Positions 18,964-39,659 of a DNA stretch of 64,000 nucleotides are shown here, piece after piece. Position numbers and translations under genes: made by a program. The first letter of the stretch is position 1. Each line of letters begins with the position of its first letter. The notes beneath the pieces are model-generated. The model ran no database searches, was not told the origin of the DNA, and saw nothing but the letters and a program-made list of their open reading frames with translations. This DNA comes from an uncultured SAR116 cluster alpha proteobacterium (lineage in GTDB: Bacteria > Pseudomonadota > Alphaproteobacteria > Puniceispirillales > GCA-002684695), in assembly GCA_902532475.1 (NCBI GenBank), contig CACAIE010000002.1, forward strand, positions 11,670 through 75,669. The letters run 5' to 3'.

Positions 18964-18997
18964 TTTAATTAGAATTTTACAAATAAGGTTTTTAAAA

Positions 18998-20305
18998 ATG
19001 ATAAAATATTTAAAAAAAGGAAAATCAGATACACAGAAAAATCAAGAAGAAACAGAAGTTCGAAATAAAGTTGAGGACATCTTAAAAGAGTTGAAAAAAG
19101 GGGGCGACAAGGCTGTTTTAAAGCTTTCTGAAAAATTTGATAATTATAGCCCTAAATCTTTTCGCTTAAGCCAAGAGGAAATTGAAAAGGCTATAAAGAA
19201 AGTTTCAAAGCAGGATTTAGATGATATAAAATTTGCACAAAAACAAATTCGAAATTTTGCTGAAAAACAAAGAGCATCATTAAAAGATATTGAAGTGGAA
19301 ACTCTTCCTGGCGTTATATTAGGTCACAAGAATATACCTGTTAACTCAGTTGGATGTTATGTTCCTGGAGGAAAATTTCCAATGATTGCTTCAGCGCATA
19401 TGTCAGTATTGACAGCGAGTGTAGCTGGTGTTCCAAGGATTATTGCCTCAGCTCCACCACATAATGGCGCTCCACACCCTGCAATTGTTACAGCTATGCA
19501 TTTAGCTGGTGCGCATGAAATTTATTGCATTGGAGGAATTCAAGCGGTTGGAGCAATGGCTTTAGGAACTGAGACAATTAAGCCAGTAGACATGTTAGTT
19601 GGTCCTGGCAATGCATTTGTAGCAGAAGCAAAGCGTCAACTATTTGGAATTGTAGGCATTGATTTATTTGCTGGCCCAACTGAAACTATGATTATTGCCG
19701 ACGAAACAGTTGATGCAGAAATTTGTGCCACAGATTTACTTGGCCAAGCAGAACATGGTTATAATTCTCCAGCAGTTTTAATTACAAACTCCAATAAACT
19801 TGCAAAAGAAACATTAACAGAAATTGAAAGAATTTTAAAAATTCTTCCCACTTCTGAAACTGCTTCTGCTAGCTGGAAAGACTATGGTGAAGTAATTGTT
19901 TGTGACAATTACGAAGAAATGCTTGAAACTTCTGAAGCAAAAGCTTTTGAGCACGTTCAAGTGATGACAGACCGCGATGATTGGTTTCTTGAACAGATGA
20001 CATGCTACGGAGCATTATTTTTAGGACCAAGAACAAATGTTGCAAACGGCGATAAAGTTATTGGTACAAATCATACACTTCCCACAAAAAAAGCTGGTCG
20101 ATACACAGGTGGTCTCTGGGTAGGAAAATTTCTAAAAACTCATAGCTACCAGAAGATACTTACCGACAAAGCAGCAACTATACTTGCTGAAAAATGTTCG
20201 AGATTATGCATTTTAGAAGGGTTTGTAGGCCATGCAGAACAAGCAAACATTCGAGCAAGGCGCTACGGAAGAAAAAATATTGAATATGGAAAGGCAGCAA
20301 AGTAG
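18998..20305 (+). CDS. Histidinol dehydrogenase-family NAD-dependent alcohol-to-acid dehydrogenase
   Basis: Start placed at ATG 18998; the ORF-track start at 18923 overlaps the previous gene. HisD motifs [26 protein letters not shown]. There are no other his biosynthesis genes nearby. Confidence 0.8.
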
Positions 20306-21333
20306 TGCACAGAAACAACTATCTTAAAGAGCTTATCAAACCTCTGAGAATGAGCATGTATGATTTCAGTGAGGATGAAGTCAAAAAACAACTAGACACT
20401 TTGTTTCATGAGGAAGCTATTATTCATCTTTCTCATCCTTTTGGTGATCTCAAGGGACCTGTTAATTTTTATAATAAATCACTGAAACCATTGTTTATTT
20501 CTATGCCTGACCTTGAAAGACGTGATTATATTGTGATTGCTGGAAAAACAGAAATGGACTTGGAATGGGTTGGCTGCGGTGGTTTTTTCAATGGAACCTT
20601 CATGAAGCCCTTTTTGGACATTCCTCCGACAGGTCATTTAGCTCATATGAGATTTCATGAATTTTATCGTTTTAAAGGCGATAAAATAATTGAAGTCCAA
20701 GCTTTATGGGATATTCCAGAACTTATGATGCAATCAAATTCCTGGCCTATGGCTCCAACACTTGGAAGAGAATGGTGCATCCCTGGCCCAGCAACCCTGG
20801 ACGGAATTTCAGATCAACCTTACGACGATCATAAAAGTAACTCTTCGGTTAAAGATGTTATGGATATGCTCACATCCATGAAAAAACATCCTTCAGAAGG
20901 AGGTCCAGAAGTAATGAGAATGGACTATTATTGGCATCCTAAAATGAATTGGTACGGGCCTTCCGGAATAGGAAGTAGCAGAGGTATAGAAGGGTTTAGA
21001 AACTGGCATCAAATCCCATTCCTTAATTCTATGCCTGATAGAGGAAAGTATGTAAAAGACATTACATATCATTTTTTTGGGGACTGTGATTATGTAGGCG
21101 TAACTGGTTGGCCAAATATGATCCAAACTATTTCTCATGATGGCTGGATGGGAATAGCTCCAGTTAATAAAAAAATTGAAATGCGATCTTTAGACTTTTG
21201 GAGACTAGAAAATGGTAAAATAAGAGAAAATTGGGTTATGGTAGACATCCTTGATGTTTACCATAAAATTGGTGTAGATGTATTTGCAAGATTAAGAGAA
21301 TTTAATAAAGCCAAAAATATGAAAGGTTACTAG
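20305..21333 (+). CDS. Tandem SnoaL/NTF2-like domain protein
   Basis: GTG start overlaps the previous stop by 1 nt (TAGTG). C-terminal pattern GWMGIAPVNKKIEMRSLDFWRLENGKIRENWVMVDILDV. Paralogous to 8005..8998 and 15125..16093. Confidence 0.75.
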   Translation: MHRNNYLKELIKPLRMSMYDFSEDEVKKQLDTLFHEEAIIHLSHPFGDLKGPVNFYNKSLKPLFISMPDLERRDYIVIAGKTEMDLEWVGCGGFFNGTFMKPFLDIPPTGHLAHMRFHEFYRFKGDKIIEVQALWDIPELMMQSNSWPMAPTLGREWCIPGPATLDGISDQPYDDHKSNSSVKDVMDMLTSMKKHPSEGGPEVMRMDYYWHPKMNWYGPSGIGSSRGIEGFRNWHQIPFLNSMPDRGKYVKDITYHFFGDCDYVGVTGWPNMIQTISHDGWMGIAPVNKKIEMRSLDFWRLENGKIRENWVMVDILDVYHKIGVDVFARLREFNKAKNMKGY

Positions 21334-21335
21334 AT

Positions 21336-22100
21336 TTGAAACTTCCAACCACACCATCATTTAGATTAGACAATAAAAATGCTTTAATTACTGGATCTTC
21401 ATCTGGAATTGGTTTGGGTTGTGCTGTTGCATTAGCCGAAGCTGGAGCATCAGTTGTTTTAGCTGCGAGAAGAAAAGAACCACTCGAAGAATTAAAAAAC
21501 AAACTTATAGAAAAAGGTCATAAAGCTGCAATTTTAGAATTGGATATTACTGACACAAAAAAAGTTGAAACTATCCTAAATGACCAACCTACCTTTGACA
21601 TATTGGTTAATAGTTCCGGAATGGCAAAGCATACCCCAACAATAGAAACAACAGAAGAAGACTTTAACTCTGTCATAGATGTTAACCTCAAAGGCGCATA
21701 TTTTATTACTAAAGAAGTTGCTAAAAAACTAATAAAAGAAAAAAAACCTGGCTCATTAATCAATATTTCTTCTCAAATGGCTTACGTTGGTGGAATTGAT
21801 AGAGCTGTTTACAGTGCTTCCAAACACGCTGTTGAGGGATTTACTAAATCAATGGCTATTGAGTTTGGTCCATATAAAATAAGAGTTAATACAATTTGTC
21901 CTACCTTTATCAAAACTGCTCTCACTCTTGCTACATTTGATGATCCTGAAAAAATTAATTGGGTGAAAAGTAAAATAAAATTGGGCAGAACAGGTGAAGT
22001 TGAAGACATAATGGGTGCAGCGGTTTATTTAGCATCAGACGCATCATCATTAGTAACAGGCACTTCAATTTTAATTGATGGTGGTTGGACTTCTGGATAG
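21336..22100 (+). CDS. SDR-family oxidoreductase
   Basis: TGSSSGIGLG cofactor motif, YSASKHAV catalytic YxxxK, and NTICPT. Confidence 0.9.
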   Translation: MKLPTTPSFRLDNKNALITGSSSGIGLGCAVALAEAGASVVLAARRKEPLEELKNKLIEKGHKAAILELDITDTKKVETILNDQPTFDILVNSSGMAKHTPTIETTEEDFNSVIDVNLKGAYFITKEVAKKLIKEKKPGSLINISSQMAYVGGIDRAVYSASKHAVEGFTKSMAIEFGPYKIRVNTICPTFIKTALTLATFDDPEKINWVKSKIKLGRTGEVEDIMGAAVYLASDASSLVTGTSILIDGGWTSG

Positions 22101-22211
22101 TCTAAATAGAATTTTTAAATTAGATTTTCTTTATATAATTTATTTATTTTCTCAAGATGTTAATTTATCATTAATTCAAAATAACTTCATTGGATATATT
22201 TCTGTAATTGT

Positions 22212-23486
22212 ATGAAAAAACTAAAAACTCAAGACGAATGGATTGCTAGAGCAAAAGAGGTTTTGCCTGCTGCCGGTTTTGGTAACTTTGAAAATGATAT
22301 CATTATAAAAGAAGGAAATGGGAGCAAAGTCTGGGACGAGGATGGTAATGAGTATATAGATTACCTGATAGGATCAGGGCCCATGTTATTGGGGCATGGA
22401 CACCCCGAAGTAATGGAGGCGATCCTTAAGCAACTACCTCAAGGGATGACTTTTTTTGCAAATAATTCGAAGGGGATAGAATTAGCAGAAGAAATTTGTA
22501 ATGCAGTAAAATGTTCTGAACAAGTTAGGTTTGTCAGTTCAGGTGGAGAAGCTGATATGTATGCAATGAGACTTGCTCGAGCATTTACAGGAAAAGATAA
22601 AATACTAAAATTTGAGGGGGGCTACCATGGAATGAGCGCTGAAGCTCAAATGAGTTTATCACCTTCAGTTTCGGTTAATTTTCCCCAAGCTGTCCCGGAT
22701 AGTGCGGGCATCCCTGAAAATATTCAAAAAGACGTTCTCATTGCACCTTTCAACGATCTTGAATTCATAGCGTCTATAGTTTCAGAATACCATGACCAAA
22801 TTGCTGGCATCATCGTTGAACCTCTTCAACGAATAATACCTCCATTACCTGGTTTTCTTGAAGGCTTGAGAAAAATATGTGACAGCAACAATATTCTGCT
22901 TATTTTTGATGAAATTGTTACAGGGTTTCGATTGGCTTACGGAGGCGCCCAAGAAAAATACAATGTCACACCTGATATTTGTACACTAGGAAAAATAATT
23001 GGCGGTGGCTTTCCATTAGCTGCAATTGCAGGCTCTAAAGAAATTATGTCCCATTTTGATCAATCGAGTGTTGGCAAAGATAAATGGTTAATGCAAGTTG
23101 GAACCCTTTCAGGAAACCCCATTGCTGCAGCGGCTGGTTTAAAGACTATGGAAGTTTTGAAAAGGGATGGGATGTTTGCAAAACTTCATCAACGTGGACA
23201 AGAGATTATGGATTGCATGAGCGAATGTTTTAAAAGGGCTAATATCCATCATAGAATTGTTGGAGATCCGTCATTATTTGATGTTCTTTTTATAAACGAA
23301 GACGTGAACAACTATAGAAATTCTATTAAGGCTGACGCCAAGCTCAACGCTCGTTTTAACCAAGGCCTCAGAAAACGCAAAATTTTTAAAGCTTCAGCTA
23401 AACTCTACCCAAGTCTAGCTCTAACTGATGAAGACATCTATCACACAAAAGAGGCAATTAAAGATACTGTTTTAAATTTAGTGTAA
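22212..23486 (+). CDS. Class-III (GSA-aminomutase-like) PLP aminotransferase
   Basis: GSGPMLLGHGHPEV, DEIVTGFR, and LGKIIGGGFPL (PLP lysine). Confidence 0.88.
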   Translation: MKKLKTQDEWIARAKEVLPAAGFGNFENDIIIKEGNGSKVWDEDGNEYIDYLIGSGPMLLGHGHPEVMEAILKQLPQGMTFFANNSKGIELAEEICNAVKCSEQVRFVSSGGEADMYAMRLARAFTGKDKILKFEGGYHGMSAEAQMSLSPSVSVNFPQAVPDSAGIPENIQKDVLIAPFNDLEFIASIVSEYHDQIAGIIVEPLQRIIPPLPGFLEGLRKICDSNNILLIFDEIVTGFRLAYGGAQEKYNVTPDICTLGKIIGGGFPLAAIAGSKEIMSHFDQSSVGKDKWLMQVGTLSGNPIAAAAGLKTMEVLKRDGMFAKLHQRGQEIMDCMSECFKRANIHHRIVGDPSLFDVLFINEDVNNYRNSIKADAKLNARFNQGLRKRKIFKASAKLYPSLALTDEDIYHTKEAIKDTVLNLV

Positions 23487-23487: not shown

Positions 23488-24684
23488 TTAATGATCTAAA
23501 CCTGTGCCTCCATAGAGCCATTCAATATTATCATGCCATTCATCCTGGGATTTAGACTTCATAATTTTGTTGCGAAGTAGAGCATGAGCTCCGTCAGGAT
23601 GATAAACATGTTTTCCTATTTCTCTTGATTGCAGTTGAACTCTAGCTGTTCTTATAATCCTATTATTCTGGTAATTTAATAAAGATACTTCAATATTACT
23701 TAATCCAGGCTTCATTGCTTCAGATAAGCAAACTGCGTCCTCAATAGCCATGCATGCTCCTTGAGCTAAATATTGGAGCATGGGGTGCGCAGCATCCCCA
23801 AGTAAAGTTACACGGCCATCCACCCAGTTTGTGATTGGTTCACGATCACACAACACCCATAACTTCCAATCCTTCCCTCTTTCTATAATCTGCCGAGCAA
23901 CTGGGTTAACATGATCAAAGCCCTTCCTAACAACTTCTTTTGAAACTAACTTTCCAGCGACTGGTTTTGGAGCGTTATTGTGGTATGTAACAACTAAATT
24001 AAAAAACTTCCATCCAGAGAGTGGATAGTGAACAATATGACATTTGGGCCCTGCCCAAAGTGTTGCAGCATTCCACCTCAGTTCTTCCGGCATATCTTTG
24101 ATTGGAATAACAGAGCGGTAAGTTGTGTGACCTGAAACTTTTGGGGGACCATCCCCTACCAATTGCTCCCTTATCTTTGACCATAACCCCTCGGCACCTA
24201 TGAGTGCAGTGCCATTTACCTCATCTCCATTTTCCATTAACGCTGAAACATTTTCTCCTTTTTGCTTATAACCGACCACATGCGCGTTAGTTTGAAGTTC
24301 AACATATTTATTATTCTTGCATGCCTCGAGGAATACTGCATGTAAATCCCCTCTATGGACAACAGCATATGGATTTTTAAATCGTCTGCGAAATTTATGT
24401 CCTAAAGAAATTCTAGTAATCTCATCCCCCTTAATGGCATCCATTAATATCAAGTCGTCAATATAAACTGACATCTTCCTCGCTTGATCTCCAATTCCAA
24501 GATAGTCAAATCCATGAAAAGCGTTTGGCCCCAATTGAATTCCAGCACCAATTTCACCTAATTTTGAGGCCTTCTCCAGGACAATAGAATTTATTCCCTG
24601 CTGTGCTAAACCAAGAGCAGAAGCTAGTCCTCCTATACCTCCTCCGACAATGATAAATCTATTTTTTTTGATAGACTTCATCAA
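23488..24684 (-). CDS. FAD-dependent aromatic-ring monooxygenase (salicylate / 3-hydroxybenzoate hydroxylase family)
   Basis: GGGIGGLASALGL dinucleotide fold, LLGDAAHPM, and conserved DG region. Confidence 0.85.
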   Translation of the reverse strand: MMKSIKKNRFIIVGGGIGGLASALGLAQQGINSIVLEKASKLGEIGAGIQLGPNAFHGFDYLGIGDQARKMSVYIDDLILMDAIKGDEITRISLGHKFRRRFKNPYAVVHRGDLHAVFLEACKNNKYVELQTNAHVVGYKQKGENVSALMENGDEVNGTALIGAEGLWSKIREQLVGDGPPKVSGHTTYRSVIPIKDMPEELRWNAATLWAGPKCHIVHYPLSGWKFFNLVVTYHNNAPKPVAGKLVSKEVVRKGFDHVNPVARQIIERGKDWKLWVLCDREPITNWVDGRVTLLGDAAHPMLQYLAQGACMAIEDAVCLSEAMKPGLSNIEVSLLNYQNNRIIRTARVQLQSREIGKHVYHPDGAHALLRNKIMKSKSQDEWHDNIEWLYGGTGLDH

Positions 24685-24692
24685 TTTATTTA

Positions 24693-25340
24693 CTATTCTG
24701 CATCTGGTTGATTTTCTGGATGGGCATCTTTAAAGGCTTCCAACGAACTGCAATGATTAAAAATTTTCATAAGGATTGGCATCTCTGATAGGTCGACGTT
24801 GAACCTTTGTGCAGAAAAAATTTGTGGAACCAGACAAATATCAGCAAGACTGGGATGATCCCCAAAGCAAAAATCTAGATTGTGATTTTGATTTTTGATC
24901 ATTTCCTCACAAGCAGCAAGCCCGCCGCCCAGCCATCTCTTTAACCATTTATCAATTTGTTTACTATCTTGATTAAACTCTTCAGTAATAAACTCTTGAA
25001 CTCTCAGATTTTGCAGTGGGTGAATTTCGCACGCTATGCTTTGCGCAAAAGCTCTAACTTTAGCCTTTAAATTTGTATCTTCTGGCAGTAAATTTGGTAT
25101 GGAGTATTTTTCATCAAGCCACTCAATAATTGCCATGGATTGCGTTAATATAAATCCATCATCCTCAATCGAAGGGATCAATGCTTGTGGGTTTATTTTT
25201 TTATATTTTAAGCTATTCTGCTCACCACCATCATTTTTCAGGTGAATGAGTTTTAAATCATAGTCTATATTTTTAAGATTAAATGCAATTCTACATCTGT
25301 ACGCTGCTGAACTTCTAAAGTATCCATATAATTTTATCAT
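24693..25340 (-). CDS. maiA: Maleylacetoacetate/maleylpyruvate isomerase (GST zeta class)
   Basis: SSAAYRCRIAFNLK active-site motif of zeta-class GSTs. 215 aa. Confidence 0.8.
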   Translation of the reverse strand: MIKLYGYFRSSAAYRCRIAFNLKNIDYDLKLIHLKNDGGEQNSLKYKKINPQALIPSIEDDGFILTQSMAIIEWLDEKYSIPNLLPEDTNLKAKVRAFAQSIACEIHPLQNLRVQEFITEEFNQDSKQIDKWLKRWLGGGLAACEEMIKNQNHNLDFCFGDHPSLADICLVPQIFSAQRFNVDLSEMPILMKIFNHCSSLEAFKDAHPENQPDAE

Positions 25341-25448: not shown

Positions 25449-26291
25449 CTAACTTAAAGCAATAAATATTAGTCCTACTGTAACAGCTGAAGCTGCAATG
25501 ATCCTTAATTGCCACGGCCTTTCCTTAAAGATAAACAGTCCTATGATAGAGCCAAAAATAACAGAAGTTTCCCTTAAAGAAGACACAATGCCCAATGGTG
25601 TGGTTACTTTTACTGTTATAACAATGGCATAAGCCACACAGGATAAAGTTCCACCTAAGGTTCCCTGGATAACAGTTTTTTTATCCAAAATTAAATTTAA
25701 TTTTTTAGATATTCTCCAAAAAATTATTATTCCACCAATGCCCTCTAAAATAAACAACCAACTGATGTATCCAAGAGCCGTCTTCGATTCCCTTGCTCCG
25801 ATGCCATCTAAAAGAGAGTATGATGCTATGCAGATACCTGTTAACAGTGCAAAGTTTAATGCCTTATATGAAATTGAATAAAAGAAACTATACAAAGAGA
25901 GAATTATAATACCAAAGGATACAAAGATAATCCCTACCATTCCATTACCCAAGGGCAACTCACCAATAAATAAAAATGCTCCCAACGTTACTATTAATGG
26001 AGCAATACCCCTCATTAATGGGTAGACTTCACTTAAATCACCCCATTTGTAACTTTGATAAAGAAAAAATAAATAAGCGAGATGAACAATGGTAGACGCA
26101 ATCAAATACGGCCATGCCGAAAATTCTGGAAATAAAGAGAAAAAACTTAGAACAATTCCAAAAACTAAATGGGCAAGGCTAATTAAAAAAACAACTAATG
26201 ACTTTTTTTCATTAGTTTTTACTAAAGAATTCCATAAGGCATGCAGCAAAGCTGCTGTGAGAACCATAAAATAAGAAGTCAACGTAATCAT
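25449..26291 (-). CDS. DMT-superfamily (EamA-like) permease
   Basis: 280 aa with about ten hydrophobic segments and a duplicated EamA-type architecture. Confidence 0.8.
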   Translation of the reverse strand: MITLTSYFMVLTAALLHALWNSLVKTNEKKSLVVFLISLAHLVFGIVLSFFSLFPEFSAWPYLIASTIVHLAYLFFLYQSYKWGDLSEVYPLMRGIAPLIVTLGAFLFIGELPLGNGMVGIIFVSFGIIILSLYSFFYSISYKALNFALLTGICIASYSLLDGIGARESKTALGYISWLFILEGIGGIIIFWRISKKLNLILDKKTVIQGTLGGTLSCVAYAIVITVKVTTPLGIVSSLRETSVIFGSIIGLFIFKERPWQLRIIAASAVTVGLIFIALS

Positions 26292-26323: not shown

Positions 26324-27508
26324 TCAGCGAATTGATAAAAGTTCTTGAGCAACCCATTTGTTAAAATGATGAGTGGGATTGTCCATGACTGGCGAAAAAT
26401 TACCTCCATTAAATATGGGGGATTGCCTTCCTTCTTGCATGCCTTCTATAATATCTATGTCTTCAGATTGTACACTATGCCATTGTTTAAAGTTTTGCTT
26501 TCTGATTGACTTATACTTGTCTGATTTCGCGGCTTCCTCACCAACGTAATATATGTCCATATGCTCTTTAGTAAAATCATGACTGATTGGCTCTAGCCAA
26601 TAAACATAATAATGGTCCCTATGAATGCCCAACATAACGTTTGGAAAAAGGGCAACATACTCAGCGATTTTTTCTTTTTCTTTAGGCCAATTAGGGAAAT
26701 TAGGAAACGTTTCTCCTCCCTCAAATTTAGGATCGTAAACTACTGTTCCTTGCCCTGCGAACCTATTTGGCAAACCTTGAATATGATAGTGATCTTCAAG
26801 TTTTGAGTAAGAGTTCAAGCCAGGGTGAACCCAAGGCAAGTGATAACTCTCACAATAATTTTCAATTGCAAACTTCCAATTACATTTTGCCTCCAACAAG
26901 AAATAACCACTATCATCAGCATGTTTAATTAAGGATTGATCTTCTTTTGGCCAAAACTTCGACCATCTATCTTCGAGGGGCTTTATATATTCGTCAAAAG
27001 GGATCTGATTATTAGAAATATTAACAAATATCATATCAAGCCAAATATAAGACCTAACCTCATGTAAATTACTATCAGACTTATTAAAACCTTCAGCTTC
27101 ATTTCTATCCATTCCACCTAAATGTGGTGTAGACACTAATTTTCCATTCAAATCGTAAGCCCATGAATGATAAGGGCAACGTAAAGCATTTTTTATACGG
27201 CATGGTTTCTGAAGAATTTTATATCCTCTGTGACTACAAACATTATGGAAAACCCTTATTGACTGATCCTTATCTCTCAAAATAATTAACGGGATCCCAA
27301 GCAAATTAAATGGAACAGCGTCTCCTGGGTTCTTTATTGAACTTGCAACTCCAATAACAACCCATTTATCCTCAAATAGATATTTCCTCTCAAATTTTGA
27401 ATAATCCCCACCAAGATAACACTCGTTTGGAAGCCCATGCGCAGTTTCAATCGAATTGCAAACAATATCCAATTTTTCTAATGGAATATAACCTTCTATT
27501 TTTTTCAT
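26324..27508 (-). CDS. Rieske [2Fe-2S] non-haem iron oxygenase alpha subunit (N-demethylase/monooxygenase type)
   Basis: Rieske motif CSHRG-x16-CPYH and mononuclear iron motif NYCESYHLPWVH. No reductase or beta subunit gene is adjacent. Confidence 0.85.
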   Translation of the reverse strand: MKKIEGYIPLEKLDIVCNSIETAHGLPNECYLGGDYSKFERKYLFEDKWVVIGVASSIKNPGDAVPFNLLGIPLIILRDKDQSIRVFHNVCSHRGYKILQKPCRIKNALRCPYHSWAYDLNGKLVSTPHLGGMDRNEAEGFNKSDSNLHEVRSYIWLDMIFVNISNNQIPFDEYIKPLEDRWSKFWPKEDQSLIKHADDSGYFLLEAKCNWKFAIENYCESYHLPWVHPGLNSYSKLEDHYHIQGLPNRFAGQGTVVYDPKFEGGETFPNFPNWPKEKEKIAEYVALFPNVMLGIHRDHYYVYWLEPISHDFTKEHMDIYYVGEEAAKSDKYKSIRKQNFKQWHSVQSEDIDIIEGMQEGRQSPIFNGGNFSPVMDNPTHHFNKWVAQELLSIR

Positions 27509-27522: not shown

Positions 27523-29094
27523 CTAAAAGTCTGTTTTAACTCCACCTTCAGACTTTCTTCTTTCTACAAAAGATTTAAGTTCATCTTTAATATGTATGTC
27601 AATCTCAGGTGCTTCAAATTCATTTAAAATATTTTTCCATATTTTGTTCGCCCTTTGATGGGTCCATTCAGCCCCATCCTGTTCCCAAGCTTCATAATTT
27701 CTCCAATCGGAAAGAAACGGTGAGTAAAACGCATTTGTGTATCTTTCCTGGGTATGATCACAACCAAAAAAATGCCCATTAGGACCAACTTCACGAATAG
27801 CTTCTACAGCAAGAGAACCCTCTCCTACATCGGAAATGACAGGATCAAAGTATCTCTGAAATTGCTGTAACACCTCACAGTCCATTACAAATTTTTCATA
27901 GCTTGCAATCAAACCACCCTCTAGCCATCCAGCTGAGTGGTAAACAACATTTACACCTCCTGTGCTAGCAGACCATAAACTATTTAAGCTTTCCCACATA
28001 GCCTGGCCATCTGGAGCGTTTGCAGCACAAGCGTTTGAAGCCCTTAAAGGCAAACCATAAAACCGAGCCATTTGCCCTGTGATTTGAGTGGCCCTTATAT
28101 ATTCAGGCGTCCCAAATGCAGGTGCGCCACTCTTCATATCAACATTTGATGTAAACGTTCCAAAAACACAAGGTGTACCAGGATTAATGTATTGTAATAA
28201 AGCTATTGCAGCCAATCCCTCTGCCAATGACTGAACCACAGCACCTGTCATAGTAACAGGCGCCATTGCACCAGCTAAGGTAAATGGCGTGACAAATACT
28301 GGCTGCCCTCTCCTTGCAAATCTCATAGCGCCATCAAGCATAGGGTGGTCATGTTTCAAAGGAGAAGAAGAATTTATATTTGTATAAATTCGTGGTTTAG
28401 AAAAAAATTCTTCCTCCGAAAGCCCCGATGCAATTTTTGCCATTTCAATCGCATCTTCCACACGTTGGCTCCCCAAAGAATAAGCGTGACATACTTTATC
28501 GGTTAACGTCAATTTCTCATACAAGCAATCCAGATGTCGGACCGAAGCGTGAATATCAACGGGTTCAACAGGATACCCTCCCGCTAAATGAATGCAATTA
28601 AAATACTGGGTCAATTTCATCAGGTCTTTAAAGCTCTCAAAGTCTCCGACCCTTCTTCCTCTATCTAAATCCATAACATTCGGTGGCGAGGAAACATTTA
28701 CAAAGGCCATATTCCGACCCCCAACCTTTACAGCTCTATCAGGATTGCGAGGAATGATCTCAAATTCAGTAGGCGCTTTAGCGATCATTTCTGAAACCCA
28801 TTGCCGATCCATTTTCACATTGTCAGAACTTTTATCTACCGTGCAACCTGCATCAATTAATATGTTCTTCGCTTCTTCATTGAGAAACTCTATTCCTATT
28901 TCCTCAAGAACTTGCATTGCAGCATTGTCAACTGCTGCGACACCCTCAGCATTAAGTGGTTCAATAAAGTTATCAGTATTATAAGGTATCTTCCATTCTA
29001 ATTGCTCAATGGTTTTCTTTCCTTTTCTGAGTGATTTACTAGATCTACCTCCGGATCTTCTTGCAGTTCTTTGTGTCAATTTAGCCTCACTCAA
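27523..29094 (-). CDS. MttB-superfamily methyltransferase (non-pyrrolysine)
   Basis: 523-aa uninterrupted ORF with no in-frame TAG. Its N-terminus is similar to the partial gene at 63701. ATGA overlap with the upstream gene. Confidence 0.8.
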   Translation of the reverse strand: MSEAKLTQRTARRSGGRSSKSLRKGKKTIEQLEWKIPYNTDNFIEPLNAEGVAAVDNAAMQVLEEIGIEFLNEEAKNILIDAGCTVDKSSDNVKMDRQWVSEMIAKAPTEFEIIPRNPDRAVKVGGRNMAFVNVSSPPNVMDLDRGRRVGDFESFKDLMKLTQYFNCIHLAGGYPVEPVDIHASVRHLDCLYEKLTLTDKVCHAYSLGSQRVEDAIEMAKIASGLSEEEFFSKPRIYTNINSSSPLKHDHPMLDGAMRFARRGQPVFVTPFTLAGAMAPVTMTGAVVQSLAEGLAAIALLQYINPGTPCVFGTFTSNVDMKSGAPAFGTPEYIRATQITGQMARFYGLPLRASNACAANAPDGQAMWESLNSLWSASTGGVNVVYHSAGWLEGGLIASYEKFVMDCEVLQQFQRYFDPVISDVGEGSLAVEAIREVGPNGHFFGCDHTQERYTNAFYSPFLSDWRNYEAWEQDGAEWTHQRANKIWKNILNEFEAPEIDIHIKDELKSFVERRKSEGGVKTDF

Positions 29095-30617
29095 ATCTTA
29101 AATAGCTTTTCTATTTTCCCATTAGTGACAAATTCTTCTAGTAAAAAAGTACAGTTATTTATGTCATCATTCATTGGACGATCATCATCAATTTTGTCAA
29201 TTGTTTTTCTAACTTGTTTCCATATATTTTTAGTTAATGATGAAACTTTATCTGTTGTTTTAACATTGTTATACCTCAAGTCTAAAGCTTGGCTTGCCAC
29301 TAAACACTCCATGCCTGCAATTAATTTCATTAATTTGGATTGCTGTAACAATTTTTTTGCACAGGCTGGTGTCATTGTAGACATATCTTCAACCGACTCA
29401 GATACTGGACTTGCATCAAAGGCTATGGGCAAAGAGTATTGTTTAATTTCTACCAGGACTGAAGCTGCAGTTTTTTGAGTAGAAACGAAACCCGCAGATT
29501 TTCCTCCTACTGGGGATAAATACTTGGGAAGATCTGAAACTCTTTCATCCATAAGCCTCTGCATACGTTGCACCGATCCATTTGCAGTCATCGTATTGGA
29601 AAGCAATAAACTTTCTATCGATATAGCCAGTCCAGGATTGTGAAAATTAGGAGTAGATAAAAATTTTCTGTCATCAATTATCACTGGACTATCTGTAATA
29701 CCATTTAACTCATTTTCCCAAATTGATATTGTATGTTTTAGATTTGATTTTGCCAGGCCGATCATGACAGCCACAGTCCTGAAAGAAAGAGGGTCTTGTA
29801 TTCTTCTGCCTTGTCTTTTTAATGGTTTTAAAATTTTATAATACCAGTCAGCACATTCTTTTTGACCTGGAGAATTCCTTAAATGATTGATATCTGGCAA
29901 AAATATTTGATGATTAGCACTAAATGCCTCAATAGACATGAGGGATGACAACTGATGCATCATCAAACATGTTTTTGTTTCATTTAAAGCTTGGGCAGAA
30001 AGAGCGATAGATAGGCATGAATGATTAACTAAAACCATAGCGTCCTTTCCATCAATTTTAGGGATGTTAAGCAGTTCTGATTTTAATTTTATTTTTGAAC
30101 TTTTAATTTTTCCTTTGTCCCAAATCTTTCCCCTTCCCAGAAGGGACAAGCCAAAAGATGCATTTTGAGTAAGGTCTCCAGCTCCAATTGATCCAAACTC
30201 TGGAATTGCTGGATCAAATCCTTTCGAAAAACAGTCAATCATAAATTTATATAATTGAGGGGAAACTCCTGTGCCACCTCTTGATGATTGGATGCACCTT
30301 GTTAGAAGTGTCATGAGGCCTAAATTTTCATTTAAATAATTTCCTGAGCCTACTGCTCGGCCCTCGATGATTTGAAGTTGAAAGTTGGAAATTTCTTCCT
30401 TACTTAAACTATAATTTAGATTACCACCAAGCCCTGTATTTAAACCGTAAACTGACTTTCCTTCTTCTAAAGCTCTTTTTACATAATCAAATTCAGTGTT
30501 AATTTTTTTTAAAGATTTCTTATCCAGAATGATTCTAAGTTTATTTCTCTTTAAATTATCTAAAATTAGAAAGAACGTATTTAAGTCAATAGTTTTTCCA
30601 TCAAGAAAAATCTTCAT
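29091..30617 (-). CDS. Aromatic amino acid lyase (HAL/PAL) family protein lacking the MIO-forming Ala-Ser-Gly triad
   Basis: Aligns with hutH throughout. The Tyr loop SVYGLNTGLG is retained, but the MIO region reads GSIGA-GDL (30171..30194) where hutH has GSVGASGDL. Confidence 0.85.
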   Translation of the reverse strand: MKIFLDGKTIDLNTFFLILDNLKRNKLRIILDKKSLKKINTEFDYVKRALEEGKSVYGLNTGLGGNLNYSLSKEEISNFQLQIIEGRAVGSGNYLNENLGLMTLLTRCIQSSRGGTGVSPQLYKFMIDCFSKGFDPAIPEFGSIGAGDLTQNASFGLSLLGRGKIWDKGKIKSSKIKLKSELLNIPKIDGKDAMVLVNHSCLSIALSAQALNETKTCLMMHQLSSLMSIEAFSANHQIFLPDINHLRNSPGQKECADWYYKILKPLKRQGRRIQDPLSFRTVAVMIGLAKSNLKHTISIWENELNGITDSPVIIDDRKFLSTPNFHNPGLAISIESLLLSNTMTANGSVQRMQRLMDERVSDLPKYLSPVGGKSAGFVSTQKTAASVLVEIKQYSLPIAFDASPVSESVEDMSTMTPACAKKLLQQSKLMKLIAGMECLVASQALDLRYNNVKTTDKVSSLTKNIWKQVRKTIDKIDDDRPMNDDINNCTFLLEEFVTNGKIEKLFKI

Positions 30618-31621
30618 TAAGCAAACCTAAGCCTTTCCCCCAAACCAATTTTCTTGGCCTTTAATAGTATTTTATGGCCTAATGCGATGTCTGAAAGAGA
30701 TAAACCTCTATGCCAAAACAATATTGTCTCTTCTTGATTTTCTCGGCCTTTTTTAATACCGCAAACTATTTGCCCAAGTTCAGCATGAAGTGTTTCATGG
30801 GTAATTTTTCCTTTATCAATATGCTCCCTTAATGACCCAAAGATACCCTTGGCTTGCCCCCAATCGTCCATGACAAATTTATCCATGATATCAGGGAGTG
30901 AAAACTCAACAGCTGACATAGTACCATACGGTACAACTAAAGCTCCTTTTTTTATCCATTTTGTTTTCAAGAGAGGCTCAGGCTTAGACAATCTAGAAGC
31001 TTCAACCACTATATCAGCTTCTTGAATGCAGCTTTTCCAATCTTCAGTCACTATGATTTTCCTGTTCAAATCATTTCTCAATTTCTCAGCGAAACTATTT
31101 CTACTTTCTTCTCTTTTTGAGTGGATCCTCACTTCTTCAAAATCAAATAAATGGCACAACAGACGAACATTCCAATACGCGGTTCCTCTCGATCCTATAT
31201 GCGCTAACACTCGTGGTTTATTTATTGATAAATATTTGGCACCTATAGCAGTGATTGCCCCAGTTCTCATGTCTGTAATTCCTGTGGCATCAACTATAGC
31301 TTTTGGAGACCCATTTCTTGGGTTAAATAAAGTCAGAACACCATATTCCGAAGGTCTGTTTTCTTGGTAATTATCAACAAAATCACCTACAACCTTAGTG
31401 CCAGCACTATCGATTTCTCCGCCTATCCATCCCCTTAGAACATTAAAGTGTCCATTTGCTCCTGCCCTAGGTCTTATATGGGTTCTTGGTTCAATTTCAG
31501 TTTCTCCCTTACCCTGCATTTTGAGGCTTTTCTCAATAGAAAATAAAATTTCATTATTGGTAAGGGCAACTTTTTCGACATCAAATTTATTAATAAAATC
31601 GATGTAAACTTCAGGCGTCAT
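30617..31621 (-). CDS. Ornithine cyclodeaminase / mu-crystallin family NAD(P) enzyme
   Basis: 334 aa with family pattern (MRTGAITAIGAKYL, HIGSRGTAYW). TAATG overlap with the downstream lyase. Confidence 0.82.
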   Translation of the reverse strand: MTPEVYIDFINKFDVEKVALTNNEILFSIEKSLKMQGKGETEIEPRTHIRPRAGANGHFNVLRGWIGGEIDSAGTKVVGDFVDNYQENRPSEYGVLTLFNPRNGSPKAIVDATGITDMRTGAITAIGAKYLSINKPRVLAHIGSRGTAYWNVRLLCHLFDFEEVRIHSKREESRNSFAEKLRNDLNRKIIVTEDWKSCIQEADIVVEASRLSKPEPLLKTKWIKKGALVVPYGTMSAVEFSLPDIMDKFVMDDWGQAKGIFGSLREHIDKGKITHETLHAELGQIVCGIKKGRENQEETILFWHRGLSLSDIALGHKILLKAKKIGLGERLRFA

Positions 31622-32274
31622 GAAGATTTTCCTTCTAGTCCTTCAGAGGCTTTGCCTGAGGCTCCCGGTATCCGCATCTCAAACACTTCGGTAATTGAGG
31701 TATAATCATAATATCCTAATCTTGCTAAAGGTCTTAATTTTTTGATATCCATTTTACCGTTCTCATTAATATAATTATCATTTACATGGATACGGGTTAC
31801 TTCTCCATAAACTACATCGACGTATCCATGATTTGAGTTGCCAGTTAAACGGTGAGTTGTCAGATATTTACATTCAAAATGTGCAGGGGACTCTGCTACT
31901 CTCGGAACCTTTGTATCCATACATTCTTCTTTTGAAATACCTGCATGTAAAAACTCATCTTCAAGAAAAGGAAGCTCCATAGCTGAAATATTAACTGCTT
32001 CACGCAAATCATAAGTTGCCATATTCCATACAAACCAACCAGTTTTTTCAGCATTTATGACCGTATGCTTTCTTTCCCCTGAGGAGAGATGGTTAGCAGC
32101 GAACATCACCATAGGTGGGTCAAATGTCAGGTTTTGCCATTGGCTGTAAGGAGCAAGATTTGGCACTCCATCTTCAGAAAGCGTTGAGAGCCACCCAATG
32201 GGCCTTGGAACAGTACACGATTTAAATGGTGAATAAGGGAGAGGGCATTTTTCTTTTGTTGGAGAATAATGCAT
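31618..32274 (-). CDS. Flavin reductase-like (FMN-binding split-barrel) protein
   Basis: VPRPIGWLSTLSEDGVPNLAPYS motif typical of the flavin reductase domain family. Confidence 0.75.
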   Translation of the reverse strand: MHYSPTKEKCPLPYSPFKSCTVPRPIGWLSTLSEDGVPNLAPYSQWQNLTFDPPMVMFAANHLSSGERKHTVINAEKTGWFVWNMATYDLREAVNISAMELPFLEDEFLHAGISKEECMDTKVPRVAESPAHFECKYLTTHRLTGNSNHGYVDVVYGEVTRIHVNDNYINENGKMDIKKLRPLARLGYYDYTSITEVFEMRIPGASGKASEGLEGKSS

Positions 32275-32286: not shown

Positions 32287-33954
32287 TTACTTGATACTAG
32301 GTAAATTTAGATTATGATTTTTTGCACTTTCAATTGCTATTTCATAGCCTGCATCCGCATGCCTCATAACACCTGTAGCTGGATCATTCCATAAAACTCT
32401 TTTGATTCTCTCTGACGCTTTATCAGAACCGTCACAACAAATGACCATGCCTGCATGTTGACTATAACCCATTCCTACCCCGCCGCCATGATGAAGTGAA
32501 ACCCAGGTTGCTCCACTTGCTGTATTAAGCATTGCATTGAGAAGAGGCCAGTCACTGACAGCATCAGATCCATCCCTCATCGCTTCAGTTTCTCTATTAG
32601 GACTGGCTACTGAGCCACTGTCCAAATGATCTCTTCCGATAACAACAGGTGCTGAGAGTTCACCCTTCGCAACCATTTCATTAAAAGCCAAACCCAATTT
32701 ATCTCTTTGGCCTAATCCAACCCAGCAAATTCTTGCAGGTAGGCCTTGAAATTTTATCCTTTCTCGTGCCATGTCCAACCATTTATGAAGGTGCTTATCA
32801 TCTGGAATTAGTTCTTTTACTTTAGCGTCTGTCTTATAAATATCTTCTGGGTCTCCAGATAAGGCACACCATCTGAATGGCCCTATTCCCCTGCAAAAAA
32901 GTGGTCTAATGTAAGCAGGCACAAATCCAGGGAATGAAAAGGCAGTCTCTAAACCTTCATCAAGGGCAACCTGCCTAATATTGTTTCCATAGTCTAGAGT
33001 TGGTACTCCCATATTCCAAAAATCAACCATCGCAGACACATGCTTTTTCATAGATTTTCGGGCTTCAGCTTCCACAATCTTAGGATTACTTTCTCTTTTC
33101 TCCTTCCATTCGCTTATTGACCAGCCTTCAGGCAAGTAGCCATTAGTTGGATCATGTGCACTGGTTTGGTCGGTAACAATATCTGGTCGCACTCCCATTT
33201 CAACGATCTTTGGAAAGATCGTTGCAGCGTTGCCAATTAAACCGACTGATTTAGACAATCCAGAAGAAGTCCATTGATCGATCATAGACAAGGCCTCTTC
33301 TAAAGTATTCGCTTTTTCATCTAAATAACCAGTTCTAAGTCGAAAATCGATACTATCAGAATTACATTCAACGGCTAAGCAACAGGCTCCGGCCATCACG
33401 GCAGCAAGCGGCTGCGCACCACCCATACCTCCTAACCCTGCAGTTAATATCCATTTTCCCTTTAAATCTCCTTTATAGTGTTGTCTTCCAGCTTCAACAA
33501 ATGTTTCGTACGTTCCCTGAACAATCCCTTGAGTACCTATATAAATCCATGACCCAGCTGTCATTTGCCCATACATTGCCAACCCTTTTTTATCTAATTC
33601 GTTAAAATGATCCCAATTTGCCCAATTAGGAACCAAGTTAGAATTTGCTATTAAAACTCGCGGTGCATCTTCATGTGTTTTGAAAACTCCTACAGGCTTA
33701 CCAGATTGAACAAGAAGAGTTTCATCCTCATTTAATTTCTTTAAACTAGAGAGAATTTTATCAAAATCGCTCCAACTCCTGGCTGCTCTTCCTATCCCTC
33801 CGTAGACAACCAGCTCATTCGGGTTCTCAGCTACATCAGGATGCAAGTTGTTCATTAACATACGCATCGGCGCTTCTGTTAACCAGGATTTAGCTGTAAT
33901 TTCATTACCAGTAGGAGGTATTACAACCCTTGAATTTTTAATTAATTCTGACAT
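32287..33954 (-). CDS. hutU: Urocanate hydratase
   Basis: 555 aa. [17 protein letters not shown]-binding motif and urocanase-specific conservation throughout. Confidence 0.95.
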
Positions 33955-33973: not shown

Positions 33974-35515
33974 TCATGAATTCAAGAACGTTGAAAACGG
34001 AATATTTAATTCTGCTTCACTTATTATAAACTTGTCCTCAAGCAAATTTGTCACTTTATTTATATCAGTTGCCATATACCTATCCTCTTTCAAACGAGGG
34101 ATATGTTTTCTAAGACAAACTATCACTTTATCCAATGCAGGTGATGTTTTTAATGGTTCTCGTGCATCAATTCCCTGTGAAGCACAAAGGAGTTCAATCC
34201 CAAAAATAGAGGATAGATTTTTATTCATTTTAAATAATCTGTATGCGCCATGAGCAGCCATTGAAACATGATCCTCTTGATTTGCTGAAGTCGGAGTTGA
34301 GTCAGTTACACAAGGATTTGCTAAATGCTTATTTTCACTCATTAGCGCTGCCGATGTAACTTCCGCAATCATAAATCCTGAATTTAATCCTGGATTATCT
34401 GTTAGGAAGGCTGGAAGGTCGTGACTGAGTGTAGGATCAACCATAAGAGCAATTCTTCTTTGAGAAATTGATCCCATTTCAGCTAAGGCTAAAGCTATTT
34501 GATCTGCGGCAAATCCAATAGGCTCCGCGTGAAAATTACCACCAGAAACTATTCTTTCTTCATCTACTAAGACTAGAGGGTTATCAGTTACTGCATTTGC
34601 TTCAATCTCAATAGTAATTGCAGCATTTTTTAAAATATCTAAACAAGCACCTAAAACTTGTGGCTGACATCTTATACAATATGGATCTTGAACTCTTTGA
34701 TCATCTTCCCTGTGGCTTTCTCGAATAATGCTCCCTAACATTAAATCCCTCATTTTTTTAGCAACAAAAATTTGACCTTTATGACCTCTTAATGTGTGAA
34801 TTTGCCCCATAAGAGGGCTAGTGGAACCCATTATGGCATCAGTAGATAAAGATGAAATAACGATTGAGTTTAAAATTGACCGCCATCCATTAAATAAATT
34901 AGCAAGGGCACAAGCAGTAGAAAATTGCGTTCCATTCAGTAACGCTAAACCTTCCTTGGGACCAAGGATGATAGGATCAATTTTTGCCTTTTTAAGCGCT
35001 TCACTTCCAGTAACTTTTTTCCCATCATAAAAAGCCCACCCTTCTCCTATCATTACAGCAGCCATATGCGCTAAAGGAGCTAAGTCCCCTGAAGCACCAA
35101 CAGATCCTTGATGAGGAATTTCAGGCACTATCCCTGAGTTAATTATTTTTTCAATTTGAATAATAGTCGACCATTTTACTCCAGAAGCACCAAGAGACAG
35201 CGATATCATTTTTAAAATCATCATAAGTCTTGTTACGTCTTCTTCAAGAGGTTCACCTACTCCTGAGCAATGACTTAAGACCAAATTTTTTTGAAGTTTT
35301 TTGCGATCTTCTTGAGGGATAACTTTGTTAGCAAGCTTCCCGAAACCTGTGTTTACACCGTAAACAGGTAAATTTCCTTTAGCCGATGCTTCAACAATTT
35401 TTGCTGCTTTTTCAACCCTATCTTTTAGCGAGATATCTAAAGTTACATTGAGTTTATTCCTAAAGATTTTCTCTAGAAAATCTAATTTGATTGATCCAGG
35501 TTTGAGAGTTTCCAT
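33974..35515 (-). CDS. hutH: Histidine ammonia-lyase
   Basis: [14 protein letters not shown] with intact ASG (codons 35087..35095) and Tyr loop [10 protein letters not shown]. Confidence 0.95.
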
Positions 35516-36735
35516 TATATTGACCCCCCAAATATTCTCTTGTAAAGAGCGTTAAATCCTATCCTGTATGAAAATTCTGAAGGATGCTCTAAATTCCATA
35601 TAGCAAGATCAGCTATCATACCTGGTTTAATCTGTCCAAGGTCTTTTAAAGATAGGGCATCCGCAGCATGTTTTGTTACGCCAGACAATGCCTCAAGAGG
35701 TGTTATCTTGAAGAGGGTTGAAGCCATATTCATTGCAAGTAAAATTGAAGTCAAAGGCGATGAACCAGGATTGCAATCAGTAGCTATTGCCATAGGCACT
35801 TTATACTTTCTAAACAATTCTATAGGAGGTTTTTGCGTTTCATTTAAAGTATAATAAGCCCCTGGTAGTATTACAGCCACACTTCCCGATTTTGACATTA
35901 ACTTGGCATCTTCTTCATTGGCATACTCCAAATGATCAATAGAAATTGCATCATAGGAAGTTGCTAACTTAACCCCACCAGAGTGGCTTAATTGCTCAGC
36001 ATGCAATTTAATTGGTAAATTTAGTTTTTGAGCAAGATCAAAAACTTCTTTTAATTGCTCCACATTTAAAGCAACAGTTTCACAAAATCCATCAACAGCA
36101 TCAACTAACCCTTCTTCATTCGCTTTTTTTAATGCCGGCAAACAAACCTCTTTGATATAATTTTCAGGATTATTTTTATATTCAGGTGCAATTCCATGCG
36201 AACCTAAAAAACTAGTTTTGATACGAATAGGTCGCAACGACTCTAATCTTTTAGCCACTCTCAACATCAGACATTCAGTTTCAATGTCCAGCCCATATCC
36301 AGATTTTATTTCTATTGTTGTGACACCGTTTCCAATCATATCATCAAGTCTCACAAGAGATGAACTTAATAAATCATCGAAACTTGCCTCTCTTGTAGCT
36401 TTCATAGTTGAAGCAATGCCACCACCTGCTTTTGCTATTTCTTGGTATGACTTACCATTTAGCCTCATATTAAATTCAGTAGATCTATTTCCGCCAAATA
36501 CTAGGTGCGTATGACAATCGATTAGACCTGGGGTTATTAATTTTCCTTTAGCGTTGTATTCATTATATTTCTTATATTTATTAGGAATATCTTTTTCTTC
36601 TCCGGACCAAACAATCTGTTCCCCATCAATAGCAATTGCTCCATTGTTTGTGATTTCAAAATCATCTTGATCATCGGACATAGGGGCCAATTTTGCATTT
36701 CTGATTAAATTTTGATTATATTGATCTTGTGCCAT
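35515..36735 (-). CDS. hutI: Imidazolonepropionase
   Basis: Amidohydrolase motifs [17 protein letters not shown] and [10 protein letters not shown]. 1-nt overlap with hutH. Confidence 0.93.
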
Positions 36736-39639: not shown

Positions 39640-39659
39640 AGATCATCTTTCATTAGGAG

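Follow-up and report, generated by a model that had tools for sequence, protein, structure and literature searches.

A 64,000-nucleotide stretch from an uncultured SAR116 cluster alphaproteobacterium (contig CACAIE010000002.1, positions 11,670 to 75,669; hereafter the window) encodes, at 29091..30617 on the minus strand, a 508-residue homologue of histidine ammonia-lyase (HAL) that cannot form the methylidene-imidazolone (MIO) cofactor. From its sequence and gene context we hypothesize, with a probability that we put at roughly 0.55, that this protein, which we label PAR, is a cytoplasmic, MIO-free enzyme of the trimethylammonia-lyase type that would convert an N-alpha-trimethyl derivative of histidine to urocanate; leaving group, substrate and product are all matters that we infer. 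The class itself is already known: trimethylammonia-lyases for ergothioneine, hercynine and N-pi-methyl-hercynine were described between 2013 and 2026. PAR belongs to a subclade marked by Arg87 and Lys382, and the Arg87 subclade is the uncharacterised part of the class. We stress that the assignment to the class is probably right, whereas the identity of the substrate is graded separately below.

A histidase paralogue without the MIO triad

An earlier reading, made from the letters of the window alone (the sequence-only reading), had described the gene as a paralogue of the HAL and phenylalanine ammonia-lyase (PAL) family that cannot form MIO, and had proposed it as a candidate betaine (trimethylamine) lyase. 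The description holds. PAR matches PF00221 with 331 bits over residues 24-471, that is, over the whole length of the HAL/PAL fold, and reaches neither of the NCBIfam cut-offs for histidase (273 against 539 for TIGR01225, 297 against 524 for NF006871). By BLASTP it is 28% identical to HutH, the genuine histidase of the same operon (E = 4e-49), and GSIGA-GDL of PAR pairs with GSVGASGDL of HutH across a single-residue gap. The positions on which the argument turns are the following.

29091..30617, minus strand: PAR, MIO-free HAL-superfamily lyase, 508 residues, in the R87/K382 subclade of the trimethylammonia-lyase clade
30171..30194, minus strand: loop GSIGAGDL, residues 142-149, against GSVGASGDL of HutH; one residue shorter, no Ser
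30426..30455, minus strand: catalytic Tyr loop SVYGLNTGLG, kept; Tyr57 equals Tyr53 of P. putida HAL
30357..30359, minus strand: codon of Arg87, where HAL has His83 and ergothionase His84 to bind N-tau of the imidazole; invariant Arg in the subclade
29778..29798, minus strand: QDPLSFR, residues 274-280; the carboxylate-binding Gln and Arg are kept and Tyr280 of HAL is replaced by Leu, exactly as in ergothionase
29472..29474, minus strand: codon of Lys382, equivalent to Lys384 of ergothionase; Asn or Gln in the hercynine-type lyases, Val in HAL

The interval 30171..30194 assigned to the loop in the sequence-only reading is right for GSIGAGDL, although it does not span the longer motif written out there; the Ala-Ser-Gly (ASG) codons of hutH (35087..35095) and the preserved Tyr loop had been placed correctly. 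Because the loop of PAR reads Ala-Gly-Asp and contains no Ser, MIO cannot form. Nor is the shortened loop a product of chance or of sequencing error, since 127 of 127 members of the family share it and a 98%-identical protein recurs independently in metagenomes and in one metagenome-assembled genome (MAG). Across 21 diverse members of the family 49 alignment columns are invariant. PAR aligns to cytoplasmic relatives from residue 4 on, an alignment that indicates the absence of an N-terminal leader.

Active-site residues

The characterised MIO-free relatives are the ergothionases of Burkholderia and Treponema denticola (Td_ETL), SO_3057 of S. oneidensis, which also uses ergothioneine, Swoo_3913, which converts hercynine to urocanate and trimethylamine, and SO_3299, whose substrate is N-pi-methyl-hercynine. 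All these members of the clade with the one-residue deletion eliminate trimethylamine from N-alpha-trimethyl-histidine derivatives, and according to the authors the trimethylammonium group is strictly required by MIO-deficient lyases (bioRxiv 10.1101/2025.08.13.670108; 10.64898/2026.04.22.720169). Lys384 binds the thiolate (bioRxiv 10.1101/2025.08.13.670108) and is taken by the authors as the mark of a thiolate substrate; it is replaced by Asn in Swoo_3913 and by Gln in SO_3299 (bioRxiv 10.1101/2025.08.13.670108; 10.64898/2026.04.22.720169). Ergothionase is thus not the only MIO-free member of the fold, as the sequence-only reading had supposed, a hercynine lyase having been reported in 2025.

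We compared the family of PAR (127 sequences) column by column with 120 relatives of the Treponema denticola ergothionase and with 23 ASG histidases. Each line gives, in window numbering, the state in the PAR family, in the ergothionase family and in HAL, in that order.

MIO loop: one residue shorter; one residue shorter; ASG, full length
Position 61: Thr; Arg; Thr
Position 65: Gly/Ala; Trp; Lys
Position 66: Asn; Asn; Leu
Position 87: Arg (127/127); His; His
Position 146: Ala; Glu; Ala
Position 277: Leu; Leu; Tyr (Tyr280 of HAL)
Position 279: Phe; Phe; Ile/Leu
Position 310: Ser in 86 and Asn in 41; Asn; Asn
Position 326: His; Glu; His
Positions 381-382: Gln-Lys; Gln-Lys; Glu/Gln-Val
Position 409: Val (Val/Ile taken as the shared state); Ile; Gln
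Position 412: Met/Val; His; His

Seven derived states (the deletion and positions 66, 277, 279, 381, 382 and 409) are common to the PAR and ergothionase families and are not found in HAL. At 87, at 412 and in part at 310, the PAR family differs from both. Tyr57, Gln274, Arg280, Asn324-Phe325 and Glu410 are invariant or nearly so in a clade that diverges to below 30% identity; among these, the invariant Tyr57, Gln274 and Arg280 correspond to the Tyr base and the Gln/Arg carboxylate site of the trimethylammonia-lyases. The ligands of the imidazole are conserved in part only: Glu410, which binds N-pi, is kept, but the position of the N-tau-binding His is Arg87 throughout. Given this replacement, the substrate cannot simply be transferred from the known enzymes.

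PAR shares with ergothionase (Td_ETL, PDB 6s7j; SO_3057) a HAL fold without MIO, the same shortened loop, Asn66, the QDPLSFR segment with Leu for Tyr280 of HAL, Gln-Lys at the Lys384 position, the catalytic Tyr, the Gln/Arg carboxylate site and the N-pi-binding Glu. It differs in having Arg87 where ergothionase has His84, in lacking Arg61, Trp65, Glu146, Glu326 and His412 of that family, in an overall identity of only 26%, and in its genetic surroundings, which contain no thiourocanate hydratase and pair it with a gene of the ornithine cyclodeaminase (OCD)/mu-crystallin family. The equivalent of Lys384 is present, as the invariant Lys382, while coupling to a thiourocanate-consuming enzyme is not found. 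The likeness to Swoo_3913 and SO_3299, which we compared through the text of the papers, lies in a MIO-free HAL homologue that gives (for PAR, presumably) a urocanate-type product and trimethylamine and is genetically coupled to a urocanate-consuming enzyme. These Shewanella enzymes, however, are periplasmic and feed urocanate reductases in anaerobic respiration, and they keep the N-tau His and carry Asn or Gln for Lys384; PAR has Arg87 and Lys382, no leader, and Hut genes rather than a urocanate reductase as neighbours, so that it would feed the aerobic Hut pathway. From HutH, of which it retains the fold and the equivalents of Tyr53, Asn195, Gln277, Arg283, Phe329 and Glu414, PAR is set apart by the missing triad, by the replacement of Tyr280 and His83 and by its scores below the curated equivalog cut-offs.

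Phylogeny and predicted structure

We searched exhaustively with HMMER, using ergothionase as query, and obtained 150 cluster representatives, of which about 130 were full-length and were tabulated. In this set the one-residue deletion goes together with Leu or Ile at 277, with two exceptions, Arg87 together with Lys at 382 (Arg in one case) occurs in about 19 representatives, and the query scores most deletion-type proteins above any ASG histidase. In a neighbour-joining tree (178 sequences, 494 columns, 200 bootstraps, no outgroup of PAL or tyrosine ammonia-lyase, TAL) the ASG histidases, along with one odd three-residue-deletion protein, are split from all one-residue-deletion proteins, PAR and ergothionase included, in 200 of 200 bootstraps. 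All Arg87 sequences fall into one clade together with four His87 sequences, with weak support (47/200). The alignment and phylogeny proposed in the sequence-only reading accordingly place PAR with ergothionase and apart from HAL, although by neighbour joining only and with PAL and TAL left out.

The AlphaFold2 model of PAR is confident (pLDDT 88.8, pTM 0.91), and its best PDB match in Foldseek is ergothionase 6s7j (E = 5e-27, TM-score 0.89). The P. putida HAL comes second with an equal TM-score, the values for HAL and ergothionase lying at 0.89-0.90, so that the structural match does not by itself discriminate between the two. Overall sequence similarity was likewise discarded as a pointer to ergothionase, because 157 bits for ergothionase against 153-177 bits for HAL express no preference. 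The kinship with ergothionase appears to be visible only in the shared derived residues and in the tree.

A different HAL homologue came to light in locus L088 (8271..9809, minus strand). It has a three-residue deletion (GSVGY---LSH), keeps His83 and lies next to a betaine-type transporter of the BCCT family (9802..11397). In the tree it groups with the ASG histidases, as does P0370, and may represent an independent loss of MIO.

Proposed reaction and substrate

In the mechanism that we propose, the alpha-nitrogen of the substrate would already be a good leaving group, most likely trimethylammonium, so that no electrophilic cofactor would be needed. Tyr57 would abstract the beta-proton while Gln274 and Arg280 hold the carboxylate, and the amine would exit into a cavity made by the shortened loop and the replacement of Tyr280 by Leu. 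The urocanate formed would be degraded by the co-transcribed HutU and HutI and by HutF, with release of trimethylamine; the OCD partner and, in the window, the flavin-reductase-like protein belong to the same module as the lyase.

Hercynine is the most likely and simplest substrate candidate, and a ring-substituted variant is also possible. We favour hercynine because the neighbouring urocanases are canonical and because hercynine and its derivatives are produced by marine Synechococcus (PMC3826126). The pocket formed by Arg87 and Lys382 would nevertheless suit an anionic ring substituent, as in an ergothioneine-like substrate, no less well; such a substrate would require a further step to urocanate, from the OCD-family protein alone or together with the flavin reductase.

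The operon in the window

The gene for PAR lies in a minus-strand array with the order hutI-hutH-hutU-Flavin_Reduct-OCD-lyase-MttB-Rieske-EamA. Intergenic distances of -4 to 32 nt suggest that all nine genes are co-transcribed; a scan of the window for consensus promoters and terminators found no more sites than in shuffled sequence. The array and its divergent neighbour are made up as follows, PAR itself having been listed above.

36814..38196, plus strand: hutF, formimidoylglutamate deiminase; divergent from the operon; passes the equivalog cut-off
35515..36735, minus strand: hutI, imidazolonepropionase; passes the equivalog cut-off
33974..35515, minus strand: hutH, genuine histidine ammonia-lyase with ASG; 646 and 681 bits; three genes upstream of the lyase
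32287..33954, minus strand: hutU, canonical urocanate hydratase; 950 bits; 672 on the thiourocanate hydratase model, below its cut-off of 930
31618..32274, minus strand: Flavin_Reduct (split-barrel) protein; 4-nt overlap with the OCD gene
30617..31621, minus strand: OCD/mu-crystallin family gene; 1-nt overlap with the start of the lyase gene
27523..29094, minus strand: MttB-family methyltransferase; no in-frame stop, hence of the non-pyrrolysine type; 4-nt overlap with the lyase stop
26324..27508, minus strand: Rieske oxygenase alpha subunit, weakly similar to GbcA (glycine betaine monooxygenase)
25449..26291, minus strand: EamA-family permease; closes the run of tightly spaced genes

The sequence-only reading had let PAR supply either urocanate or thiourocanate to the co-transcribed HutU. 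The canonical character of HutU fits the route through urocanate. Thiourocanate, by contrast, would be ill-suited to this enzyme, whose score also lies below the cut-off for S-methyl-thiourocanate hydratase, and is disfavoured as the direct product of PAR. That reading had mentioned neither the invariant Arg87 nor the OCD partner, and had likewise passed over the flavin-reductase-like gene and the MttB gene that overlaps the lyase gene.

Characterised non-pyrrolysine members of the MttB family demethylate quaternary amines. The MttB and Rieske families are both tied to quaternary-amine demethylation; near the two genes of the window we saw neither a corrinoid protein nor a reductase partner.

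Gene neighbourhoods of the relatives

We examined the genes within 7 kb of the lyase gene in 81 genome loci, with the following counts.

OCD/mu-crystallin: at least 61 of 81; immediately adjacent and usually overlapping the lyase start
hutU: 22 of 81, in genomes from several taxonomic orders; all canonical urocanases
hutH: 20 of 81
hutI: 19 of 81
hutF: 15 of 81
Flavin_Reduct: 15 of 81, directly upstream of OCD
Rieske oxygenase: 10 of 81
MttB: 8 of 81, in SAR116-like loci only

The number for OCD is an underestimate, as antisense open reading frames mask the gene in loci of high G+C content; in Rhodoferax the order of lyase and OCD is inverted. Genes of the hut pathway occur near the lyase in about 25% of the 81 genomes, and the same adjacency turns up in SAR116, in several roseobacters, in Rhizobiaceae and in soil metagenomes. 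Some lyase-OCD pairs stand alone behind a LysR regulator, one follows homogentisate-pathway genes, in an array with Flavin_Reduct, OCD and lyase (L004), and one follows a molybdenum hydroxylase. MttB was considered as general support for a betaine substrate and set aside: together with the Rieske gene it is confined to SAR116-like loci and constitutes local evidence only. In Roseovarius faecimaris (L003, 959..3267) a CaiB-type CoA-transferase and an acyl-CoA dehydrogenase lie between hutG and hutU and may serve an imidazole propionate route.

More distant Arg87 lyases (P0274, P0311 and P0305 from Methylobacterium, and those of about 70 Rhizobium plasmids) are encoded inside an operon for an OpuAC-type ABC transporter that also holds genes for OCD and for a protein resembling PhnD. 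In one of these operons (L090) the OpuAC protein has matches to choline/betaine binders, to ProX and to EgtUC, which binds ergothioneine (6.6e-48), and at the head of the Rhizobium operon stands the gene of a repressor that scores above the HutC equivalog cut-off (283 against 220). These operons are the strongest independent evidence that suggests a histidine betaine as substrate. They also recall the second hutH genes of other bacteria (hutH2 of Sinorhizobium meliloti, hutH1 of Pseudomonas fluorescens), in which a HAL-like gene lies beside a ProU/OpuC-type ABC transporter under hut control; the Rhizobium plasmids have the same arrangement with an R87-type lyase and OCD. The hutXWV-hutH2 operon of S. 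meliloti, which we take to be comparable to the Rhizobium operon, is reportedly induced by histidine and transports histidine and betaines.

The OCD-family partner

The partner gene encodes a protein that matches PF02423 with 155 bits and falls below every NCBIfam subfamily cut-off, the best being that of archaeal AlaDH (152 against 409); its relatives in the PDB are AlaDH, Pyr2C reductase and SbnB, the last of which acts on N-substituted glutamate. The family's carboxylate-binding Arg/Lys/Arg positions, presumably correctly assigned here, seem to be kept in the alignment. The protein is the most conserved element of the module: that of the window is 60-74% identical to its counterparts in Rhizobium, Methylobacterium and Roseovarius, across alphaproteobacterial orders, whereas the matching lyases are 27-46% identical, and nine aligned OCD sequences have a mean column identity of 75%. 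In the literature searched we found no paper describing a pair of OCD and MIO-free lyase.

A metagenome scan with the OCD alignment yielded 80 loci, with these neighbours beside the OCD orthologue.

Deletion-type lyase: 32 of 80
PhnD-like protein without signal peptide: about 27 of 80
hut genes: 16 of 80
OpuAC-type transporter: 14 of 80

In two of these loci the OCD orthologue lies directly beside a true ASG HutH. In three (L110, L114, L120) it directly follows S-methyl-thiohydantoin desulfurase and S-methyl-thiourocanate hydratase, and in L110, which was tested for both, the two enzymes pass their cut-offs (543 against 450 and 956 against 880, respectively). Many orthologues are solitary in metagenomes, with neighbours (MFS, MarR, glycosyltransferases) that are uninformative. 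Since OCD adjoins both ASG HutH and the S-methyl-thiourocanate genes, it belongs to the catabolism of histidine derivatives broadly and not to trimethylamine release alone. An action of OCD on trimethylamine itself is unlikely, as the protein pairs with ASG HutH, where no trimethylamine arises, and as it seems to retain the carboxylate-binding positions named above.

In soil and rhizobial modules the OCD gene is followed by one for a 270-residue protein of the PhnD/PtxB-like periplasmic-binding fold that has no signal peptide (L092 13616..14434; L090 8165..8977; L110 7009..7821) and may be a cytoplasmic ligand-binding or enzymatic component. The window lacks it and has the flavin-reductase-like gene instead.

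Alternative explanations

Several observations weigh against a simple histidine-betaine lyase. The His that binds N-tau in HAL, ergothionase and hercynine lyase is invariably Arg in the PAR family, the carboxylate-binding Asn is Ser310 in PAR, and Lys382 is retained, whereas both non-thiol lyases carry Asn or Gln there; as judged from the alignments, the pocket of the R87 subclade would differ from that of every characterised relative. The proposal of a betaine lyase in the sequence-only reading thus gains from the clade shared with ergothionase and from the operons with betaine-type transporters, but does not extend straightforwardly to hercynine or ergothioneine. In the PAR-proper subfamily the neighbouring transporters are not of the betaine type (EamA in the window, Dpp-type SBP_bac_5 in about 6-8 lineages, TakP-like TRAP in Roseovarius), and some loci adjoin gentisate or homogentisate genes or a molybdenum hydroxylase instead of hut genes. 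A hercynine lyase would by itself need no OCD partner, yet OCD is the most conserved element, and where it adjoins true ASG HutH or S-methyl-thiourocanate genes no deletion-type lyase was detected in the stretch covered. The tree, too, counsels caution, being a neighbour-joining one that lacks an outgroup.

An unlikely alternative is a lyase of the ergothioneine type, for a substrate with a 2-thio or anionic ring: Lys382 and Arg87 would bind the thiolate, and OCD and the flavin reductase would turn thiourocanate to urocanate for HutU by reductive desulfurisation. Lys382, invariant, equals the thiolate-binding Lys384 that is replaced in the non-thiol lyases, and Arg87 would add a second positive charge where the ergothionase family has an extra Arg of its own in the Tyr loop. 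The resemblance of the OpuAC binding protein in the sister-clade operon to EgtUC points the same way, as do the OCD orthologues directly after S-methyl-thiourocanate hydratase and its desulfurase; and with no thiourocanate hydratase nearby and 22 of 22 neighbouring urocanases canonical, the step needed to reach urocanate would give OCD a job. However, we found no precedent for a desulfurising reductase in the OCD family, whose enzymes normally require an alpha-carboxylate beside a C=N bond, OCD also pairs with ASG HutH, where no sulfur is involved, and Arg61, Trp65, Glu146, Glu326 and His84 of the ergothionase family are absent from PAR. We give a similarly low probability to a substrate that is not derived from histidine, such as another betaine or an N-substituted (opine-like) amino acid whose acidic or phenolic side chain sits on Arg87 and Lys382, hut adjacency then reflecting shared regulation or a catabolic island. 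Such a substrate would suit the replacement of the imidazole-binding His by Arg, the Dpp/opine-type SBP_bac_5 transporters beside the pair in several lineages and the alpha-keto-acid-type TRAP of Roseovarius, the homogentisate genes of L004 and the gentisate genes downstream in the window, the many pairs without hut genes in the stretch covered, some of them alone behind LysR, and the presence of SbnB among the closest solved relatives of OCD. Against it stand the invariant N-pi binder Glu410, the recurrent hut adjacency, the HutC repressor of the Rhizobium operon, the exclusive use of histidine betaines by the characterised members of the clade, and the fact that, without MIO, a secondary amine leaves much less readily. 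In particular, we considered a lyase for N-substituted glutamate or opines, with Arg87 and Lys382 on a distal carboxylate and Dpp transporters beside it, and place it behind a histidine-betaine lyase in view of the hut, HutC and OpuAC contexts.

It is quite improbable that PAR is no lyase in vivo but an altered partner or subunit of OCD, or an enzyme that acts on urocanate-type enoates by addition or isomerisation. The far stronger conservation of OCD, the translational coupling of the two genes, and OCD orthologues that occur without lyase and beside urocanase-type hydratases would fit this idea; the (near) invariance of Tyr57, Gln274, Arg280, Asn324-Phe325 and Glu410 below 30% identity argues instead for retained lyase chemistry, and a tetramer-type fold is predicted with high confidence. 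Least probable by far is an ordinary histidine ammonia-lyase in which another triad would give rise to MIO or to an electrophile of equal effect. Indeed, 41 of the 127 shortened loops read Ala-Ser-Asp, so that some relatives do possess a Ser, but that of PAR does not and no methylidene can arise from it. Moreover, Tyr280 is lost, the scores lie far below the hutH cut-offs, and the true HutH is encoded three genes upstream. A second hutH homologue of P. fluorescens, hutH1, which is a possible parallel to PAR, is dispensable for growth on histidine (PMC8034625).

A wider proposal, which we advance tentatively and consider rather unlikely as it stands, is that the lyase and OCD, with the flavin reductase in marine bacteria or the cytoplasmic PhnD-like protein in soil bacteria, form an unrecognised accessory branch of the Hut pathway. 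The lyase would release trimethylamine from betaines of the hercynine or ergothioneine type, and OCD would catalyse a novel NAD(P)-dependent reaction of an imidazole-acrylate or imidazolone intermediate, for instance one that takes off a 2-substituent reductively, through which modified histidines could join the ordinary urocanase route. Such a branch would account for the additional hutH genes found in rhizobia, and possibly for those in pseudomonads, and would make the abundant marine SAR116 bacteria and roseobacters a source of trimethylamine from cyanobacterial hercynine.

Distribution and implications

The PAR family is large, with members at 33-63% identity in a search of 5.8 billion proteins and 439 relatives in a collection of one genome per species. 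Carriers include SAR116/Puniceispirillales, many roseobacters, Rhizobiales, Granulosicoccaceae, Leucothrix and Rhodoferax/Comamonas, among others, as well as Methylobacterium and Rhizobium. PAR of the window, the G+C content of which is 36%, is 98% identical to the protein of a MAG labelled "uncultured Rhodobacterales", while its identity to those of SAR116 MAGs is about 60%.

If the assignment of PAR as a histidine-betaine lyase is true, a widespread gene gains a function and its routine annotation as "histidine ammonia-lyase" is a systematic misannotation. Abundant marine heterotrophs would then turn histidine betaines into urocanate and trimethylamine by a route that is aerobic and cytoplasmic. 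Trimethylamine is a methylated amine that matters to climate and to nutrition, and hercynine and ergothioneine are made by marine cyanobacteria. The invariant Arg in place of His and the OCD partner would further point to chemistry or specificity beyond the three characterised types of trimethylammonia-lyase, and the old puzzle of the "second hutH" would become directly testable in genetically tractable rhizobia.

Other genes in the window

The window is rich in genes of methylated-amine metabolism. A betaine-homocysteine S-methyltransferase is encoded at 47716..48816 on the minus strand (389 against 338), and two tandem DAO-GcvT fusions of the dimethylglycine/sarcosine dehydrogenase type lie at 58715..61204 and 61201..63678 on the plus strand. 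After the operon, at 23488..25340 on the minus strand, there are genes for a 3-hydroxybenzoate 6-monooxygenase and a GST of the maleylacetoacetate/maleylpyruvate isomerase type; in SAR116 relatives a cupin gene, probably for a ring-cleavage dioxygenase, stands between EamA and the GST gene (L001 15227..18132), where the window has a 108-nt gap instead. In the plus-strand cluster at 14093..23486, which looks catabolic and not biosynthetic, one gene (18923..20305) passes the hisD domain model (442 against 244); alongside it are genes for a regulator of the LacI type, a bicupin, two SnoaL-like proteins, a MetE-like protein (Meth_synt_2), an SDR, an RraA-like protein and a class-III aminotransferase. 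Finally, two open reading frames on the minus strand at 38191..40583, unrelated to the lyase, correspond in position to the Ppx/GppA and PPK2 genes that Pfam calls identify in the syntenic SAR116 locus L001.

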